Notes: generated from the letters alone by a model not told the origin. Numbered from the stretch's first letter, positions 57,336-64,000 are shown. The stretch is 64,000 nt of DNA from Gammaproteobacteria bacterium (GCA_002730035.1 PBYU01000016.1:126098-190097); one strand, 5' to 3'. Program-made: numbers and translations.

Positions 57336-58470
57336 ATGAGAAGTTCGAATTTTGGTTACATACCCGCTCTCGATCACCTGCGAGGGTTCGCTGCGTTGCT
57401 GGTGCTGTTCTTTCATGGCTGTCACTTAATCTCTCACAAACTGCAAAGTAATGTTCCCTACGATCTGAGTTTCTGGCCGCGTGCCGAGAATCCATTTTCC
57501 TCATTAATCCTGGAAGGTCACACGGCCGTCTCTCTGTTCTTCGTGCTGAGTGCATTTGTGTTTACTGTAGGCTCGACTAATCGGGATCTGAATTTTACAG
57601 GATTCTATCGAAATCGATTGCTCCGTACTTATCTGCTTTTTCTGTTTTTTTCTCGCTCTTGGCATCCTCTTTAACACTGAAAACTTCAGCTGGGCTGGCC
57701 TGCTGCATTCAATTTTCTTCATGGCCAACAACGCCCAGGCGATCGATGGAGGTCCTCCTTTTACCTTCGTATTCTGGTCTATTGCCGTTGAGTGGCATTT
57801 CTACCTGTTATTCCCATTGCTGATTCTATTGGTGAAGAAGTTTGACTGGCATCTGTTGCCAATACTGATACTGGTATTTTTCACACTGCGCTACTACCTG
57901 ATGTTGCAGGGAGTTGACATGCTGGTTGTCAGTTACTGGACGATTCTCGGCCGGATAGACCAATTCCTGATTGGCATGCTCACGGGACTGTTTTATGTGA
58001 AGCATTTTGAACAGGGCAGGAAATTTGATGCTCTCGCATTTGTGGGTTTGATTCTGGTACTGACAGCCCTGTTTGTGTTCAATCAGTATGGCGGCAATGG
58101 CAGTAACAATGTCAAGTGGGCTATCTGGCTCACGATCGAAGCGAGTTGCTGGGCAATCTTCATAATCGGCTACCTGTCCTTAGGCAGACATTTTCCCGCC
58201 GCCCTCGGCAAGGGATTGGTGGCTCTGGGAACAGTGAGCTACTCGATATACCTTGTACATTACGTAGTGCTGGATTTTCTGATGGGCAGGGACTGGGATG
58301 TCTGGCTGCGAGTTGCCGATCCATTCGGTACTGCCTTGCTGAACACCACATTGATTCTGATGCCCCTGGTTGTGTTGATCTCTGCTGGCACCTACTGGCT
58401 GATCGAGCGGCCATTCCTGGTGCGCCGCAAGACTTACATGGTCAGGGCCGAGGCTATTGAATCGGCATAA
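57336..58470 (+). pseudogene. Acyltransferase-3 (OafA/YrhL-type) family gene interrupted by a +1 frameshift in a T7 run
   Basis: ORF 57336-57674 starts with the family N-terminus (IPALDHLRGFAALLVLFFHG). ORF 57721-58470 continues the family (FWSIAVEWHFYLLFP). Removing one T from T7 at 57645-57651 joins them in frame. Confidence 0.7.
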
Positions 58471-58493: not shown

Positions 58494-58515
58494 TGTGCCG
58501 CTATAGCTCAGCCGT
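58494..58515 (+). repeat. 22-nt exact duplicate of the 5' end region of tRNA-Thr (TGTGCCGCTATAGCTCAGCCGT)
   Basis: It is identical to 58591-58612, which spans 3 nt of leader plus the acceptor 5' strand and D-arm of the intact tRNA 97 bp downstream. The first copy has no matching anticodon or T arms. Confidence 0.8.
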
Positions 58516-58593
58516 AGATAATGAGAGTAGCAGCTGGCCTTGTCAGCGAGGCACGGCAGGCGAAGAGGTTGCCTGATATAGAAAGCCCTATGT

Positions 58594-58671
58594 GCCGCTA
58601 TAGCTCAGCCGTGGTAGAGCAGCTGATTTGTAATCAGCAGGTCCCGAGTTCGACTCTTGGTGGCGGCACCA
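58594..58671 (+). tRNA. tRNA-Thr (anticodon UGU) with encoded CCA
   Basis: I folded the cloverleaf by hand. The acceptor pairs GCCGCTA/TGGCGGC, the D stem GCTC/GAGC, and the anticodon stem GCTGA/TCAGC with loop TTTGTAA. The T arm is CCGAG-TTCGACT-CTTGG, followed by discriminator A and CCA. Confidence 0.9.
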
Positions 58672-58763: not shown

Positions 58764-59120
58764 CTAAAGGTGTATTGCAGCTATCAACGCAAGTCGTTCC
58801 CTCTCTTGTTCTCTCAGGGTAGCAAGAGGTACTCGTGCAGCTCCGTGCACCCATTCACCAGTGAAGGTAACGACGCCGTCGGGATTAGTGTGCGTACTCA
58901 TACCGTGTTGTAGCCCATACTCCCAATTGCCTTCATATATATTTCCATCAGCGGTTGTCAAAATTCCCAGCCCATGGGGTCGTCTAGTCAGACCTCCTCC
59001 CTCAACTTCACCAACGTAAACACCCCCATTGGGATAATTTACAGTCTCAACTTGACCATAAGAAACACTTGCTAGGGAAATAAGCAGAAGAAAGAGGGCT
59101 GTAGAGGTAAGGAGCTTCAT
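58764..59120 (-). CDS. Secreted MORN-repeat protein
   Basis: It has a signal peptide (MKLLTSTALFLLLISLASVSYGQ). MORN-like repeats are present (YPNGGVYVGEVEGG, GNIYEGNWEYGLQHG, FTGEWVHG). ATG 59120 is preferred over TTG 59132. Confidence 0.7.
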   Translation of the reverse strand: MKLLTSTALFLLLISLASVSYGQVETVNYPNGGVYVGEVEGGGLTRRPHGLGILTTADGNIYEGNWEYGLQHGMSTHTNPDGVVTFTGEWVHGAARVPLATLREQERERLALIAAIHL

Positions 59121-59136
59121 AGTAACTCTCAAATAT

Positions 59137-59230
59137 ACCTAACCGTTCGTCCAGAATATTATGTAATAGCCCTAGATGGAACCAAATAGAACAAATGGGG
59201 GGTGCCCCGGGGGTGGAGCAGACGTTTAAT
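59137..59230 (-). repeat. Copy A of a 93-103 bp attC-/MITE-like repeat family
   Basis: The plus strand starts ACCTAACCGTTCGTCCAG and ends GTTTAAT. It aligns over its full length with copies at 61006-61108 (inverted) and 63565-63657. The GTTAGGT end lies 16 nt upstream of the MORN gene ATG. Confidence 0.7.
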
Positions 59231-59554
59231 GAGGCTCTGACGCGCAATAGCTGAATGACAGCTATCGACCCATAGCGGACAGTGGGAGTTTCCCAGAAAT
59301 CACCCAAATCTGCCTCTCCAAAACGGCCATTTAGGCCGCCAACTCTATTGTGCTAGACCTTTCCGTCAAATAACTAATAAGAAGCAGGACCTATCTATGG
59401 GTAAGCTGCTAGATGTGGTAATGCCGTGGAGCTTTGATGAGATTTGCGGACTTTCGAAGGCTTTCAATACTAGCAGGGAGAATTTTCTGCCAATTGACAT
59501 AGCTTTTGTTCTACTTATACTCGAAAGTTCACTCAAAACCCGTCGAGGTGCTCC

Positions 59555-60625
59555 ATGTCTTATCGCAATCCAATCGTATCCGTAGCCGCTCTGCTCGCAC
59601 TCGCTTCTATGTTTGTGCCGCAACAATCCGCTGCGCAGAACTCCACGAATCCGTATGCGATCGTCGAAGGGTGGGCGAAGCTGCCGGGTGGAAGGGTGAT
59701 GGGAGCAGTCGGCAAAGCGAAGGTCGACCCCGACGGGCGCCATATCTGGGCCGTTATACGTTGCGATGCCGGGCCTGATCGTTTCGGTTCGGAGTGCGTT
59801 GATTCAGACTTGGACCCCGTCTTGAAGTTTGATCCCGATGGCAACGTGGTCGAGTCCTTCGGCAGCGGAATGTTTATCTGGCCGCATGGAATTGACGTTG
59901 ACTCCAACGGCAACGTCTGGGTGACGGACGCTGTGAGTGATAACAACATTCCCGCGGGCGACGACCGAGGCCATCACGTCATCAAGTTTAGTTCTACTGG
60001 CGAAGTGCTCATGACACTTGGCACTCCTGGAGAACAGGGAGACGGCCCGAACCACTACACTTCCCCGAGTGATGTGGCAGTCGCGTCTAACGGCGACGTG
60101 TTCATAGCGGACGGCCACAACGCGAACGGAAACAACCGAGTGGTGAAGTACAACAGCCGTGGCGAATTCCTCATGTCTTGGGGAGAGACTGGCTACGCCC
60201 CGGGACAGTTCCGCGCCCTACACGCCATCGCCATTGATCCAGATGGTCGAGTGTTCGTGGGAGATCGCAGCAACAGCCGAATTCAAATCTTCGACCAAGA
60301 GGGCAACCACTCTGCCACCTGGACCCAATTCGGGCGCCCGAGCGGAATCGCCTTTGACGACGAAGGGCGGATCTACGTCGCGGACTCCGAGTCGGACAAC
60401 GTACAGAATCCAGGGTATGAAATGGGAATTCGTATCGGCGAAGTTGAGACGGGATGGGTGAAGGAGTTCATTCGCTTCCCATGGGCGAATCCCAACATCC
60501 TACCGGGGAACGGAGCGGAGTTCGTCACCGTCGATAGCGAAGGCAACATTTACGGAGGAGAGCCCGTCCCCAACCCTCATCTTAATGACCGAACGCTCAG
60601 GAAGTACGTGCGAGTGCGACCCTGA
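59555..60625 (+). CDS. Secreted NHL-repeat six-bladed beta-propeller protein (diverged paralogue of 698-1765)
   Basis: It has the same length class and blade motifs as the first copy (GNVWVTDAV, GDVFIADGH, VFVGDRSNSRIQIFD, RIYVADSES) and a signal peptide. Confidence 0.8.
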   Translation: MSYRNPIVSVAALLALASMFVPQQSAAQNSTNPYAIVEGWAKLPGGRVMGAVGKAKVDPDGRHIWAVIRCDAGPDRFGSECVDSDLDPVLKFDPDGNVVESFGSGMFIWPHGIDVDSNGNVWVTDAVSDNNIPAGDDRGHHVIKFSSTGEVLMTLGTPGEQGDGPNHYTSPSDVAVASNGDVFIADGHNANGNNRVVKYNSRGEFLMSWGETGYAPGQFRALHAIAIDPDGRVFVGDRSNSRIQIFDQEGNHSATWTQFGRPSGIAFDDEGRIYVADSESDNVQNPGYEMGIRIGEVETGWVKEFIRFPWANPNILPGNGAEFVTVDSEGNIYGGEPVPNPHLNDRTLRKYVRVRP

Positions 60626-61005
60626 GCGATGGTCCACCTCGATCTGGTGTGCTGCAATGCCGTAAGGAGAAGGGCGCCCGGGCTGCTTCATAGTCGCCTC
60701 CTTGGCACCACCCCCGGCCCATACGAAGTCGTCGCAAGGTTGGCGAAAGCGGCATGGGAGAGGTGTATGGCACAGTACGACCAAGACATCCAAGTTTGAA
60801 GGAGTCCCAATGCGTCTGATATATGCGGTCGTGGTGCAGAGCGCAGCGATGGTGTCCAGTTCTCCGTATAGTGCAGAAATGGTGTCAGGGGCGGAATAGA
60901 ATGTATATTAAAATCAATAACTTAGAGGAAATAATAGTATTTACCTGCCATCTTACCTACCATAAAATGATTTCAGATTTACTTTTACCACACCCCCCTG
61001 TTTTC

Positions 61006-61108
61006 TAGTAACCGCCCAGTCAGCACACCCACCCCCTGGGCACCACCCACTTGTCCAAGCAGGTTCCATCTCGGACTATTACATATTATATTGGACGAAC
61101 GGTTAATT
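61006..61108 (+). repeat. Copy B (inverted relative to A and C) of the attC-/MITE-like repeat family
   Basis: It runs TAGTAACCG...GGGCACCACCCACTTGTCC...GGTTCCATC...TATTACATATTAT..TGGACGAACGGTTAATT. The GTTAATT end lies 154 nt upstream of the esterase ATG. Confidence 0.7.
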
Positions 61109-61262
61109 AATTCTGAGGTGTTTCCTGACACTAAACAGAGTATCTTCTGGGTATGAATATAAACAAACTAACCAAATTCCTCAGCCCTATCTGTAGCTTT
61201 CGTCGCGATGAAAGCTTTATAAAAAAACTACTAACAACATTCAAGTAGCCAGGAAGCTAATA

Positions 61263-62030
61263 ATGAAGAAAACCCGATTCTTGCCATTCATACTGTTGCT
61301 GTTAAGCACTGGAACGCTCAATGCACAGTCAGCGGAAACTGGATTTCTCAACAGAAGCATCTCTCTGGATGGTGTGGAATATCGATATCAAGTGTATGTT
61401 CCATACAATTACACTGCAGCTGAAGAGTGGCCCGTTACACTTTTTCTGCATGGTGCGGGAGAGCGGGGTTCAGATGGTCTGAAACAGACTCAAGTTGGGC
61501 TGGGTAGGGCGATTCGGCTTAACCCGGAACGGTGGCAGACTCTCGCGGTTTTCCCGCAAGTGCCTGCGGGTGAATCCTGGCAGGGAGTGGCTGGAGATGT
61601 TGCTATGGCAGCGCTGGATGTCACCATTGCAGAGTTTTCGGTAGATGCCGAACGGCTGTACCTAACCGGCCTCTCACTTGGTGGTAATGGGACCTGGTAC
61701 CTAGGCTACCATCACACAGAGCGATTTGCGGCTATGGTTGCAGTTTGTGGATTCGTGGATCTTGGGGACCGATTTCCTGGATTCTTGCCAGAGGCTGAAA
61801 ACAGTTTTGCTGCCCTGGCAGAAGACCTGTCCGATACCCCTGTGTGGATTGTGCATGGCGATGCGGATGTTGTCGTTCCTGTGGAGCAATCTCGTAAAAT
61901 GGCTGCCGCACTAGAAGCGGTTGGTACGGACATTCACTACACCGAACTGCCAGGGGTCAATCACAATTCATGGGACGCTACTTACGCAAACTCTGATCTC
62001 ATAAGCTGGCTATTTGACCAGAAGCTCTAG
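61263..62030 (+). CDS. Secreted alpha/beta-hydrolase (predicted esterase/peptidase)
   Basis: It has a signal peptide. FLHGAGERGSDG, the nucleophile elbow GLSLGG and HGDADVVVP are typical of carboxylesterase/predicted-peptidase alpha/beta hydrolases. Confidence 0.8.
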   Translation: MKKTRFLPFILLLLSTGTLNAQSAETGFLNRSISLDGVEYRYQVYVPYNYTAAEEWPVTLFLHGAGERGSDGLKQTQVGLGRAIRLNPERWQTLAVFPQVPAGESWQGVAGDVAMAALDVTIAEFSVDAERLYLTGLSLGGNGTWYLGYHHTERFAAMVAVCGFVDLGDRFPGFLPEAENSFAALAEDLSDTPVWIVHGDADVVVPVEQSRKMAAALEAVGTDIHYTELPGVNHNSWDATYANSDLISWLFDQKL

Positions 62031-62171
62031 TGAGAATTTAAAAATTGAATATAAAGGCCTGAGACACCTCCGACAGAGTATCTCTTCGCTCTAGGCTCAA
62101 CCAGATGTAAGCCATGATTTTGAACCGCGACACCGTCTAAAACTGAGTCGGGGATAATCTGACTGAAGATG

Positions 62172-62206
62172 TGCCCACCCCTTTTTGGTGAATAGAAGGG
62201 TGGGCA
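62172..62206. other. 9-bp perfect inverted repeat (TGCCCACCC / GGGTGGGCA) between convergent genes
   Basis: The arms are at 62172-62180 and 62198-62206, with a 17-nt loop. It could be a bidirectional terminator or a recombination scar, but no clean U-tract is present. Confidence 0.3.
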
Positions 62207-62226
62207 TGGCAGCTTCCATCTGAAGT

Positions 62227-62598
62227 CTAATCTGCTGGACGCACTTCCCAAAATTTGAGATCAACTTTCTTAGTCAGGATGTCTACATCCAAAATCACGA
62301 AGTTTACAGCACCGTTACTGCAAGCGTCTGCAAAGTAGACATGCGTGTTCGATTGATCCCTTCTGAAGGTTCCCATATGTGGAGTACTGATCCGTGTACC
62401 GTCCTCTAGAAAGGTGCGACCTTCCCCTACAAGTTTACCTCGAGTGCGATCTTGCGCGTTGGGAAAGCATTCATGAGTGAGGAATGGAGAACCGTACCCT
62501 TCAACCTTTCCTTCGAAATCAAAAGAGGTAGACTCTTCATTGATTGTCATCCTAGTAATTTTGAGTTTTCCGCGACCGTCTGGGTTTGAAAGATCCAT
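62227..62598 (-). CDS. Hypothetical small protein (paralogue of the 63726-64000 ORF)
   Basis: 123-aa ORF. It shares YG.., G..FLEDGT and later blocks with the ORF at the right window edge. Confidence 0.55.
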   Translation of the reverse strand: MDLSNPDGRGKLKITRMTINEESTSFDFEGKVEGYGSPFLTHECFPNAQDRTRGKLVGEGRTFLEDGTRISTPHMGTFRRDQSNTHVYFADACSNGAVNFVILDVDILTKKVDLKFWEVRPAD

Positions 62599-62719
62599 TA
62601 ATTAACTCCTAATAAGAAATGTGATTAAAACAACTACACTTGAAGATGCCGAAACACCCTCTCAAAAACTGAATACTTAATTTATCTTCGACGAAGTGTT
62701 TAAAAACCTTATCGATACT

Positions 62720-63454
62720 CTAAATGCCCCAATGAATTACATGACTTTTCCACAAGGAGAGATTTCCGCAAGTTGCAGGATCAGAAGAATTAGGTGTATT
62801 CCATGACATGGCATCCAGTCTCCTTCCCAAACCTTCCGAATTCTCGCCGATTACCCTAATGGCAAATGTAGAGTTCATATCACCTTCTTCCCCACTCGCT
62901 AAAATCTGCAGAAAACCGTAACCAGATCTATCATTACTAGCTCTGTTTTCTCCGTCAAATTCTGCAAGCGTCTGTTGAACATCTTCCATAGTTTTGCCTG
63001 GATTTAGTTGGCATTGCCGTATGGCTACGTAACTTTCCTCAATTTCGCCTCCTTCATAAGGGCTTGCTTGGTCAGGTTCATTAACTGGCCAGTTACGTCC
63101 GACTTGCCTCGTCCCACCACAGTCAACCATTGCAAAAAAATGACGGCTGGGTCCTGATTGAGATTGTGACTCTAATCCCTTTATCATATGTTCAAAATTG
63201 TCCCAGTATCTGACTACATTTATGCTTCCCGCCCTAGAAGAAGCCGCAACAATAGGTTCTCTGTAGAATACTAGGTTAGGTCCATTGTCGGTTCGCGGGA
63301 TAGCTCTTCCTACGCCAACGACTTCCTCAACTGTAAAACCTGGTTTTAAGGTACATTGCATAAACTCATTGATGTTGCCGACTTGCGCTGACGAAGAGCT
63401 CATCCAAATCATGAGGATAAAAAACGAGAGAGTTGAAGATACATAATTTTTCAT
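62720..63454 (-). CDS. Secreted hypothetical protein
   Basis: 244-aa ORF with a signal peptide (LSFFILMIWMSSSSAQ). It is AT-rich. No family recognised. Confidence 0.6.
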   Translation of the reverse strand: MKNYVSSTLSFFILMIWMSSSSAQVGNINEFMQCTLKPGFTVEEVVGVGRAIPRTDNGPNLVFYREPIVAASSRAGSINVVRYWDNFEHMIKGLESQSQSGPSRHFFAMVDCGGTRQVGRNWPVNEPDQASPYEGGEIEESYVAIRQCQLNPGKTMEDVQQTLAEFDGENRASNDRSGYGFLQILASGEEGDMNSTFAIRVIGENSEGLGRRLDAMSWNTPNSSDPATCGNLSLWKSHVIHWGI

Positions 63455-63564
63455 TATTACTTCCTTATCTTATATAAATTAATGTTTTTAAAGGGGTATC
63501 TTGAATAGTCCTCAAAAGGGATATAGCAGCCTCAGCGAGGAATTTAATCATAACGACCAGAAAT

Positions 63565-63657
63565 ACCTAACCGTTCGTCCACTATAATATGTAATAATCC
63601 GGGATGGAACCAAATAGAGCAAGTGGGGGGTGCCCCGGGGGCTGGGGTCTGCTAGGT
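63565..63657 (-). repeat. Copy C of the attC-/MITE-like repeat family
   Basis: The plus strand starts ACCTAACCGTTCGTCCAC and ends GCTAGGT. The GTTAGGT end lies 110 nt upstream of the minus-strand ATG at 63454. Confidence 0.7.
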
Positions 63658-63685
63658 AGCGAAAGATGCAGAAGGAAAAACCTAC

Positions 63686-63712
63686 AAAAAAAAGGGCCAT
63701 AAGACCCTTTTC
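63686..63712 (-). terminator. Rho-independent terminator of the 63726-64000 minus-strand ORF
   Basis: The minus-strand transcript reads AAAGGGUC-UUAU-GGCCCUUU followed by a U8 run. It starts 14 nt after the stop codon. Confidence 0.75.
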
Positions 63713-63725
63713 TGTCTTTAAAGAA

Positions 63726-64000
63726 CTACTCGTCCACAGAGTAATTTGTACCGGAAAAAATCAGGGTATCTAAATGGAGTTCTCCGACACTTCTAACTTT
63801 TGTTCCATCACTGATCTGAATTACGTAGTCAGTTTCCCAAATATGCTCTCCGGGCTTTTTGCTCCATTGTCCGGATCCAGATCCAGCAAGACCAGTGCCG
63901 TCTTCCAGGAACGCTTGCCCAATCCATTTGACGGGTCCGCCTTCAAGACTATCGTTCATTTCCATCAGTGGTGTAGGCCCAAAGATCAGAGTGCCATAGA
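63726..64000 (-). CDS. Hypothetical small protein, 5' end outside the window (paralogue of 62227-62598)
   Basis: The frame stays open upstream of Met 63965 to the window edge (..YGTLIFGPTPLMEMND..). It shares the GQAFLEDGT block with the 123-aa ORF. Confidence 0.5.
   Translation of the reverse strand, partial: YGTLIFGPTPLMEMNDSLEGGPVKWIGQAFLEDGTGLAGSGSGQWSKKPGEHIWETDYVIQISDGTKVRSVGELHLDTLIFSGTNYSVDE

Follow-up and report, generated by a model that had tools for sequence, protein, structure and literature searches.

The window analysed here, a stretch of 64,000 nt from Gammaproteobacteria bacterium (GCA_002730035.1 PBYU01000016.1:126098-190097), with coordinates counted from its first letter, contains three copies (A, B and C) of a short intergenic repeat. 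This element is probably a portable module, composed of a promoter and a 5' untranslated region (UTR) and sometimes extended by a signal peptide, that is reshuffled by recombination in flexible genomic islands. The copies belong to a repeat family with an orientation bias relative to the neighboring genes, have a common block anatomy, reuse the same leader and signal peptide before different proteins and carry breakpoints inside the element. An initial annotation of the window had interpreted them mainly as integron attC sites or as a miniature inverted-repeat transposable element (MITE), and mentioned against this a conserved promoter or 5'-UTR element with no variability between strains. The promoter part of that scenario is now the best reading, whereas strain variability is present, contrary to what had been expected with it.

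Regarding the copies themselves, a pairwise repeat search within the window aligned A with C at 82% identity over 104 nt (59110-59213 and 63538-63641), B with C at 81% over 91 nt (61025-61115 and 63558-63648, inverted) and A with B at 80% over 89 nt (59128-59216 and 61029-61117, inverted), and the three-way alignment has a core of about 90 nt free of insertions and deletions. A count of the invariant core GGTTCCATC-N6-TATTACATA-N-TAT over the 64 kb gave exactly three occurrences, compared to 0.00 expected from 100 shuffles, and no fourth copy of the element was found elsewhere in the window. By search, alignment and core count, the three copies thus lie essentially where they were first placed, the limits given by the hidden Markov model (HMM) of the family, used below, being slightly wider. 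The orientation and distance to the following genes were likewise reproduced, with 16 nt to the ATG of the MORN gene (59120) for A, 154 nt to that of the esterase gene (61263) for B and 110 nt to that of a 244-aa gene (63454) for C, as was the presence of GTTAGGT in A and C and of GTTAATT in B. The copies and their blocks are as follows.

59105-59225, minus strand: copy A (family HMM limits)
59197-59216, minus strand: C-rich box of copy A, CCACCCCCGGGGCACCCCCC
59178-59183, minus strand: GGTTCC of copy A, -35-like
59156-59161, minus strand: TAATAT of copy A, -10-like
59136-59155, minus strand: 5'-UTR block of copy A, TCTGGACGAACGGTTAGGTA
59126-59130, minus strand: Shine-Dalgarno GAGAG of copy A
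59118-59120, minus strand: start codon ATG of copy A
59052-59120, minus strand: signal-peptide coding part MKLLTSTALFLLLISLASVSYGQ of the MORN gene, within the shared module
61006-61141, plus strand: copy B (family HMM limits)
61028-61050, plus strand: C-rich box of copy B
61062-61067, plus strand: GGTTCC of copy B
61084-61089, plus strand: TATTAT of copy B
61090-61109, plus strand: UTR block of copy B, ATTGGACGAACGGTTAATTA
to about 61141, plus strand: subfamily 3' extension of copy B, GAGGTGTTTCCTGACACTAAAC
63537-63662, minus strand: copy C (family HMM limits)
63625-63647, minus strand: C-rich box of copy C
63606-63611, minus strand: GGTTCC of copy C
63584-63589, minus strand: TATTAT of copy C
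63564-63583, minus strand: UTR block of copy C, AGTGGACGAACGGTTAGGTA

Block conservation was assessed in the 53 copies not matched by either search pattern, as this set is the least biased by the way in which the family was discovered. Four blocks are conserved in them, CCCACCCCCGGGG(C/T)AC-CCCC, GGTTCCAT, TACATACTAT and TCTGGACGAACGGTTAGGTA, and the spacer from GGTTCC to TAYTAT exists in three unrelated sequence versions whose length differs by at most 1 nt. In one copy with a 10-nt deletion, a TTGTTC-17-TACTAT arrangement is restored, and two others (L026 and L027) keep only the 35-nt stretch from -35 to -10. The -35-like hexamer (TGGTTC/TTGGTT) matches the consensus at 3/6 positions and the -10-like TAYTAT at 4-5/6, at a constant spacing. 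Downstream, an ATG with a GAGAG Shine-Dalgarno site lies 35-38 nt behind TAYTAT in many contexts, and the end of the element is often located 12-16 nt before an ATG having such a site. Conserved hexamers at a fixed distance with a spacer free to vary, and behind them a short leader and ribosome-binding site, correspond to the anatomy of a promoter, and the lack of single-stranded DNA (ssDNA) or RNA structure, as seen below, fits a function as duplex DNA. Judging from these sequence features, the element is predicted to have promoter activity and to contain a transcription start. With its center about 60 nt upstream of the predicted start, the CCCCGGGG palindrome in the C-rich box is a candidate activator site.

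Other types of site were compared by eye and rejected: a sigma-54 promoter (GG/GC spacing off by 2), a sigma-32 promoter (spacer too short), an extracytoplasmic-function type GGAAC on the opposite strand (no suitably spaced CGT, and a strand that does not match that of the genes), a promoter of a T7-like single-subunit RNA polymerase (vague ACTAT resemblance only), an invertible promoter (flanking inverted repeat of only 6 bp) and a dif/Xer site (inverted arms absent).

The search for further copies revealed a large family in marine gammaproteobacterial genomes and metagenomes. An exact-pattern scan of one genome per species gave about 28 true copies, at 3-5 per genome and with the other matches being due to chance; their carriers are metagenome-assembled genomes (MAGs) of marine Gammaproteobacteria, Pseudomonadales and Pseudohongiella, together with one single-cell genome. 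In metagenomes, scanned with a different sub-pattern, at least 120 loci were found, and the family HMM yielded at least 248 matches, representing at least 203 distinct sequences and at least about 110 distinct downstream contexts. All family members come from marine Pseudohongiellaceae-like genomes and metagenomes, and the single match in viral contigs is a chance one, without the features of the family. The Rfam models, at gathering as well as permissive thresholds, recognized no family on the repeats. This repeat family is apparently undescribed.

The orientation of the element follows the gene behind it. In 69 of 84 distinct contexts, the dominant open reading frame (ORF) 200-500 nt downstream is on the strand of the element, and on the upstream side the ORF strand is split 49 to 49. 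The downstream proteins are also enriched in signal-peptide-like N-termini, present in 44 of 66 compared to 14 of 45 genes of the window according to a crude predictor. At least two copies were found in 53 of 160 loci, where neighboring copies have the same orientation in 57 cases and opposite orientations in 12. Concerning distribution, three short contigs carrying the element (L003, L006 and L018) were deposited in bins labelled Dehalococcoidia, and they are probably mis-binned gammaproteobacterial DNA; one of them, L006, is 99.5% identical to 62171-64000 of the window and has a run of N (masking or a scaffold gap) at 2357-2702, just before its second copy, which limits the reading of its departure from the window at 62171.

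In the subfamily of copy A, the homology continues through the ATG and the whole signal peptide MKLLTSTALFLLLISLASVSYGQ and ends at the cleavage site. This leader precedes MORN, Sel1, LRR, LRR plus FG-GAP, PQQ dehydrogenase, beta-lactamase-family and unknown proteins; comparing seven module-carrying genes with that of copy A, six have different mature proteins and the seventh (L147) is another MORN-type gene. The boundaries are clearly seen between copy A and L131, whose nucleotide identity is 82-90% in the promoter and UTR and 95-100% in the signal-peptide coding part, then drops to 20-42% immediately behind the SYGQ codons, and is 30-35% upstream of the C-rich box, the mature protein of L131 (213 aa) being unrelated to MORN.

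A similar reuse is reportedly known from Borrelia burgdorferi, in the upstream homology box (UHB) and the OspE/OspF-like leader peptides of erp/elp genes, said to have been described by Marconi and colleagues in 1996 and Akins and colleagues in 1999 (two papers in the reference list of PMC10016077), where a promoter region and leader peptide are reported to be common to genes with unrelated mature proteins and recombination to produce new combinations. The likeness lies in this placing of one promoter and leader peptide before unrelated mature proteins, and the subfamily of copy A has the corresponding common upstream region and leader, with homology ending at the leader boundary. The UHB genes belong to a spirochaete, encode lipoproteins and are carried by cp32 prophage plasmids, whereas the present family is found in chromosomal islands of marine gammaproteobacteria, with Sec-type signal peptides and no prophage link in the viral contig scan.

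The region holding the repeats varies between strains, as seen by comparing contigs that encode MORN or esterase proteins identical to those of the window; all comparison sequences are metagenome, MAG or single-amplified genome assemblies. L045, L046 and L047 follow the window at 99.5-99.96% identity and then diverge at 60795, 60901 and 61101, respectively. The last position is inside copy B, and L047 continues as the 3' part of another copy followed by a SAM-I/IV riboswitch, whereas in L143 the same 3' half and riboswitch stand behind a different 5' half. L049 (NP1044) contains exactly B through C (60986-63661, 98.5%), flanked by tRNA-Val and tRNA-Asp at one end and by a TonB receptor gene at the other. 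In L158, the NHL locus is 99% identical to 59193-60901, yet a 441-aa protein stands behind the element instead of MORN. The suggestion that A and B are inverted repeats around the NHL gene did not hold, as L045, L046 and L158, from the same strain, have A and the NHL gene without B.

When all pairs with a segment at least 94% identical touching the element were considered, 12 of 20 distinct right breakpoints were within 0-55 nt behind TAYTAT and 44 of 57 left breakpoints within 10-120 nt before it, occupying many positions on both sides, and the breakpoints so counted fall inside the element of about 150 nt. Such a spread fits homologous exchange between copies and not a single site-specific crossover, and the breakpoints are likely to reflect recombination in vivo. 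Moreover, positions 60613-62641 of the window, comprising a tRNA-like scar, copy B, the esterase and a 123-aa gene, are 99.85% identical in at least ten independent assemblies, where they stand between the genes for an AMP-binding enzyme and a cytochrome c, with a major facilitator superfamily transporter on the cytochrome c side. Two explanations are considered: a recent transfer or rearrangement of this segment, or a chimera in the window contig within the 489-nt overlap 60613-61101. The features around the copies are listed below.

58594-58671, plus strand: tRNA-Thr(TGT), start of the variable region holding all three copies
58764-59120, minus strand: MORN-repeat secreted protein, 118 aa, served by copy A
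59226-59307, minus strand: subfamily-specific 5' extension of copy A
60880-60897, minus strand: 18-nt fragment ATTCCGCCCCTGACACCA similar to the 3' end of a tRNA, located about 100 nt before copy B
60986-61027, plus strand: unit of about 38 nt upstream of copy B, ending ACACCCACCCCC; one unit here
61153-61248, plus strand: 31-codon ORF directly behind copy B
61263-62030, plus strand: secreted alpha/beta-hydrolase (esterase/peptidase S9-like), 255 aa, first long gene behind copy B
62227-62598, minus strand: 123-aa gene, behind the 244-aa gene on the same strand
62720-63454, minus strand: 244-aa secreted protein without Pfam family, served by copy C
63690-63711, minus strand: terminator-like hairpin followed by a T run on the minus strand, between the upstream 131-aa gene and copy C

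In the proposed mechanism, the module would start at its 5' end with the C-rich box CCCACCCCCGGGG(C/T)ACCCCCC and its CCCCGGGG palindrome, the putative activator site, followed by a sigma-70-type core promoter, (T)TGGTTC, 16-18 nt and TA(C/T)TAT, and by a conserved leader of about 30 nt, TCTGGACGAACGGTTAGGTA, up to the GAGAG Shine-Dalgarno site, to which the subfamily of copy A adds the start codon together with a whole Sec signal peptide. It would then drive and initiate the expression of any gene placed behind it, mostly encoding exported proteins, and would be common by descent to many non-homologous genes. Since the copies contain long identical stretches, they could act as homology arms, and recombination between them would swap downstream genes or upstream flanks. 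The expected outcome would be that units of element plus gene accumulate as clusters in flexible islands, often next to tRNA genes, in the genomes of uncultured marine Pseudohongiellaceae-like gammaproteobacteria.

Several points weigh against the reshuffled promoter module. The match of its -35 hexamer is weak (3/6) and the element was missed by a consensus promoter/terminator scan, the spacer and UTR are more conserved than a plain promoter needs, implying an additional function or a recent spread, and in 15 of the 84 contexts the dominant downstream ORF is on the opposite strand. Contig ends, taken as a proxy for transcription starts, are scattered over the whole element and reflect assembly breaks, being uninformative in this respect. 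The SAM-I/IV riboswitch is on the same strand as the element and 80-83 nt behind it (L047, 129-227; L143, 2068-2166; 46 bits, with a gathering score of 41.1), and a sigma-70-like promoter candidate, TTGATT-17-TAGTAT, lies between the two in both contigs, so that the riboswitch is no proof of a transcription start within the element. In addition, about 45 of 229 copies are less than 200 nt from a locus end, mostly a contig end; as assemblers break or mis-join at repeats, some breakpoints, and possibly the join of NHL gene, copy B and esterase in the window, may be artefacts.

The first interpretation, in which the copies would be attC sites separating mobile gene cassettes, is in agreement with GTTAGGT, which corresponds to GTTRRRY in A and C, and with small, single-gene, repeat-bounded units in a strain-variable region. 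It is nonetheless extremely improbable, being already contradicted on its defining structural feature, the hairpin-forming palindrome: the minimum free energies of both ssDNA strands of A, B and C, including the bottom strand on which attC folding would be expected, are -5.4 to -10.8 kcal/mol, weaker than those of dinucleotide shuffles (z of +0.67 to +2.09), and RNAalifold retained only three base pairs across 26 distinct copies. The supposed pairing of the unit ends comprises 6 bp (TACCTA/TAGGTA), which pair in 73% of cells compared to 75% in shuffles and have no excess of covariation among 31 distinct copies, and the B-type subfamily pairs via a different, non-homologous 5' hexamer, TAACCG, indicating that the complementarity is coincidental. 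The supposed distal inverse cores fall in the 5' region, one of the most weakly conserved parts of the element. Furthermore, the copies in the window are oriented minus, plus, minus, the element holds the Shine-Dalgarno site, ATG and signal peptide of the next gene rather than trailing a cassette ORF, the breakpoints are at many positions instead of between the G and TT of the core, and no intI-like motif was seen in the scanned loci. Pfam annotation of 13 loci (L045-L057) gave no integrase or transposase, and no tyrosine-recombinase box II was found in 1.03 Mb of family loci including the window, a weak motif test whose motif matches control segments of XerD, IntI1 and lambda Int; the Rfam scan without match on the repeats has to be read knowing that Rfam holds no attC covariance model. 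A MITE or transposon-end remnant with an outward promoter, like the Correia elements, would explain the many copies, their clustering, their position at contig breaks and their diverse contexts, and the units upstream start with GGGG on the opposite strand, which by eye only is faintly Tn3-family-like. This origin is also very unlikely, with no terminal inverted repeats or hairpin, no transposase annotated in those 13 loci and no clean pair of filled and empty sites among the compared loci. Rather than fixed ends, the homology has ragged ones that are not the same in all copies (in 141 full-context copies, the HMM matches start and end at widely different positions), ranging from just behind TAYTAT to the signal-peptide cleavage site, thus entering coding sequence and stopping there, and 82% of the copies point at a gene.

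A regulon is an unlikely alternative as a complete explanation, in which one regulator or sigma factor would keep promoters and operators similar by selection alone, with all 90 nt constrained and no mobility. The C-rich palindromic box and promoter-like blocks, kept even in divergent copies, the enrichment of exported proteins in the cargo and the confinement to one bacterial lineage would all follow from it. However, unrelated genes agree at 80-100% identity in neutral parts (spacer, UTR and synonymous signal-peptide positions), the identity falls abruptly at the edges of the module and the cargo at one locus differs across strains, which argues for shared descent and exchange, not convergence; the regulon overlaps the promoter module rather than excluding it. 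It is quite improbable that the element acts at the RNA level, as a 5'-UTR leader or small RNA controlling how stable the mRNAs of exported proteins are or how they are translated: TCTGGACGAACGGTTAGGTA is indeed downstream of the -10-like box, well-conserved and reaches the Shine-Dalgarno site, but there is no Rfam family, conserved structure or covariation, the folds are weaker than those of shuffles, the strongest conservation is upstream of any plausible transcription start and some copies lose the UTR block while keeping the -35 to -10 stretch. The tRNA links and tandem units described below leave a small probability that the element and its upstream units are recombinase arm sites at the conserved end of tRNA-targeting integrative islands. 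As called by ARAGORN, tRNA genes in the family loci have about twice the frequency assumed for a typical genome, five distinct contexts have a co-oriented tRNA 50-200 nt upstream of the element (Asp, Ser, SeC, Met and Arg), and tRNA 3'-end fragments lie upstream of copy B and of the L131 copy. In addition, many copies are preceded by one to three tandem units of about 38 nt, each ending with the common box GACCCCACCCCC. Against such a role, most contexts are without a nearby tRNA (21 of 159 loci have one), box II is absent from the 1.03 Mb, no integrase is annotated in the 13 loci, copies occur in both orientations inside islands and the orientation bias toward genes is left unexplained. A last reading is possible yet rather doubtful, and goes further than the promoter module: a gene-shuffling system that is integrase-free or uses an unrecognized recombinase, with the module plus one exported-protein gene as the cassette. 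In the same tentative terms, the module and the tandem GACCCCACCCCC units might be the substrate for adding, swapping and stacking cassettes beside tRNA genes, and the whole might, with similar reservation, be a functional analogue of the integron in which every cassette has its own promoter and secretion signal.

The fragment at 60880-60897, which resembles a tRNA 3' end, is a possible old attachment-site scar, and it is exactly there that both L046 and L158 part from the window. L046 has a longer tRNA-like remnant, with a Phe-like anticodon loop, at 1-140, the homologous site. An insertion into an intact tRNA at 60901 was downgraded, as the L046 sequence is not called a tRNA by ARAGORN or Rfam and is thus considered a tRNA-like remnant. 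Copy B has one of the tandem units, L049 has two and L068 as many as three, and the number differs even between otherwise homologous loci, such as L016 and L040. Upstream of the copies in L068, L116, L049, L020 and L044, as well as at 60986-61027 of the window, the units end with (CAG)ACCCCACCCCC. A Tn3-family 38-bp inverted repeat was rejected by eye for these units, which are tandem and not inverted.

Among known systems, the closest in definition are the putative mobile promoters (PMPs) of Matus-Garcia, Nijveen & van Passel 2012, sequences of at least 50 nt and at least 80% identity upstream of non-homologous genes, found within genomes and between genera, with no known mobile element, no Rfam family and an unknown mode of movement (PMC3575422). 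Copies A, B and C are of this kind, being 80-82% identical over 89-104 nt before a MORN protein, an alpha/beta-hydrolase and a protein of no family, and likewise the family across its roughly 110 contexts. In contrast to a typical PMP pair, this family is much larger, has a clear promoter-like block anatomy with a C-rich upstream box, is enriched before exported proteins and clusters in flexible islands, and one of its subfamilies reaches through the signal peptide, a case that the PMP screen excluded by design (PMC3575422). The Correia repeats of Neisseria and the ERIC/REPIN-type repeats are short intergenic repeats able to supply promoters (PMC3575422), similar in size (about 100-150 nt), location and possible promoter function for neighboring genes; however, they have terminal inverted repeats or palindromes, target-site duplications and fixed ends, and the element here is without such structure or fixed ends. 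Integron attC arrays share with it a repeat between small single-gene units, a variable region and GTTRRRY-like heptamers (in two copies), and differ in that the present repeats have no folded palindrome, no intI was found, their orientation is mixed and a predicted promoter comes with each gene, the repeat belonging to the 5' end of the next gene.

If the promoter module is correct, uncultured bacteria abundant in the deep ocean would provide a concrete case, defined at the sequence level, of promoters and signal peptides being reused on a large scale, and their flexible islands could give acquired or reshuffled genes ready-made signals for expression and export. In practice, the 35-nt core together with the C-rich box may serve as a marker for the variable secretome of this lineage in metagenomes. 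It is also a warning that short repeat-bounded gene units beside tRNA genes are not necessarily integron cassettes.

Regarding the neighborhood of the copies, the AT-richer, tRNA-linked setting noted at first is confirmed by the tRNA-Thr gene at 58594-58671 and by a GC content of 43% at 62-64 kb compared to about 52% elsewhere in the window. The 5' end of this tRNA has a 22-nt exact duplicate, TGTGCCGCTATAGCTCAGCCGT, at 58494-58515 (vs 58591-58612), 97 nt upstream of the gene, possibly a truncated copy of the tRNA or the scar of a rearrangement. Further upstream, an Acyl_transf_3 acyltransferase is divided into two ORFs, at 57336-57674 (112 aa) and 57721-58470 (249 aa), and since the split is identical in the independent contigs L045 and L046, it is a real frameshift or a two-part gene. 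The 5' extension of copy A (59226-59307) also recurs elsewhere, with 84-94% identity in at least 12 other loci and two occurrences each in L112 and L155. This second modular piece includes a hairpin of 8-9 bp, and its fold has a z of -2.0. Behind copy B, a 5'-UTR extension (61110-61149) is common to B and L033, where it is followed by a full gene of 155 aa, and the 31-codon ORF at 61153-61248 is possibly the remnant of the gene originally served by B. Copy C has the context order gene, intrinsic terminator, element, gene. The 123-aa protein (62227-62598) and the 131-aa protein (63726-64000; complete in L006, at 176-571) both have an FLEDGT motif and no Pfam family; with 26% identity (E of 2e-4), they are distant paralogues, and a homologue in L109 also has the element upstream.

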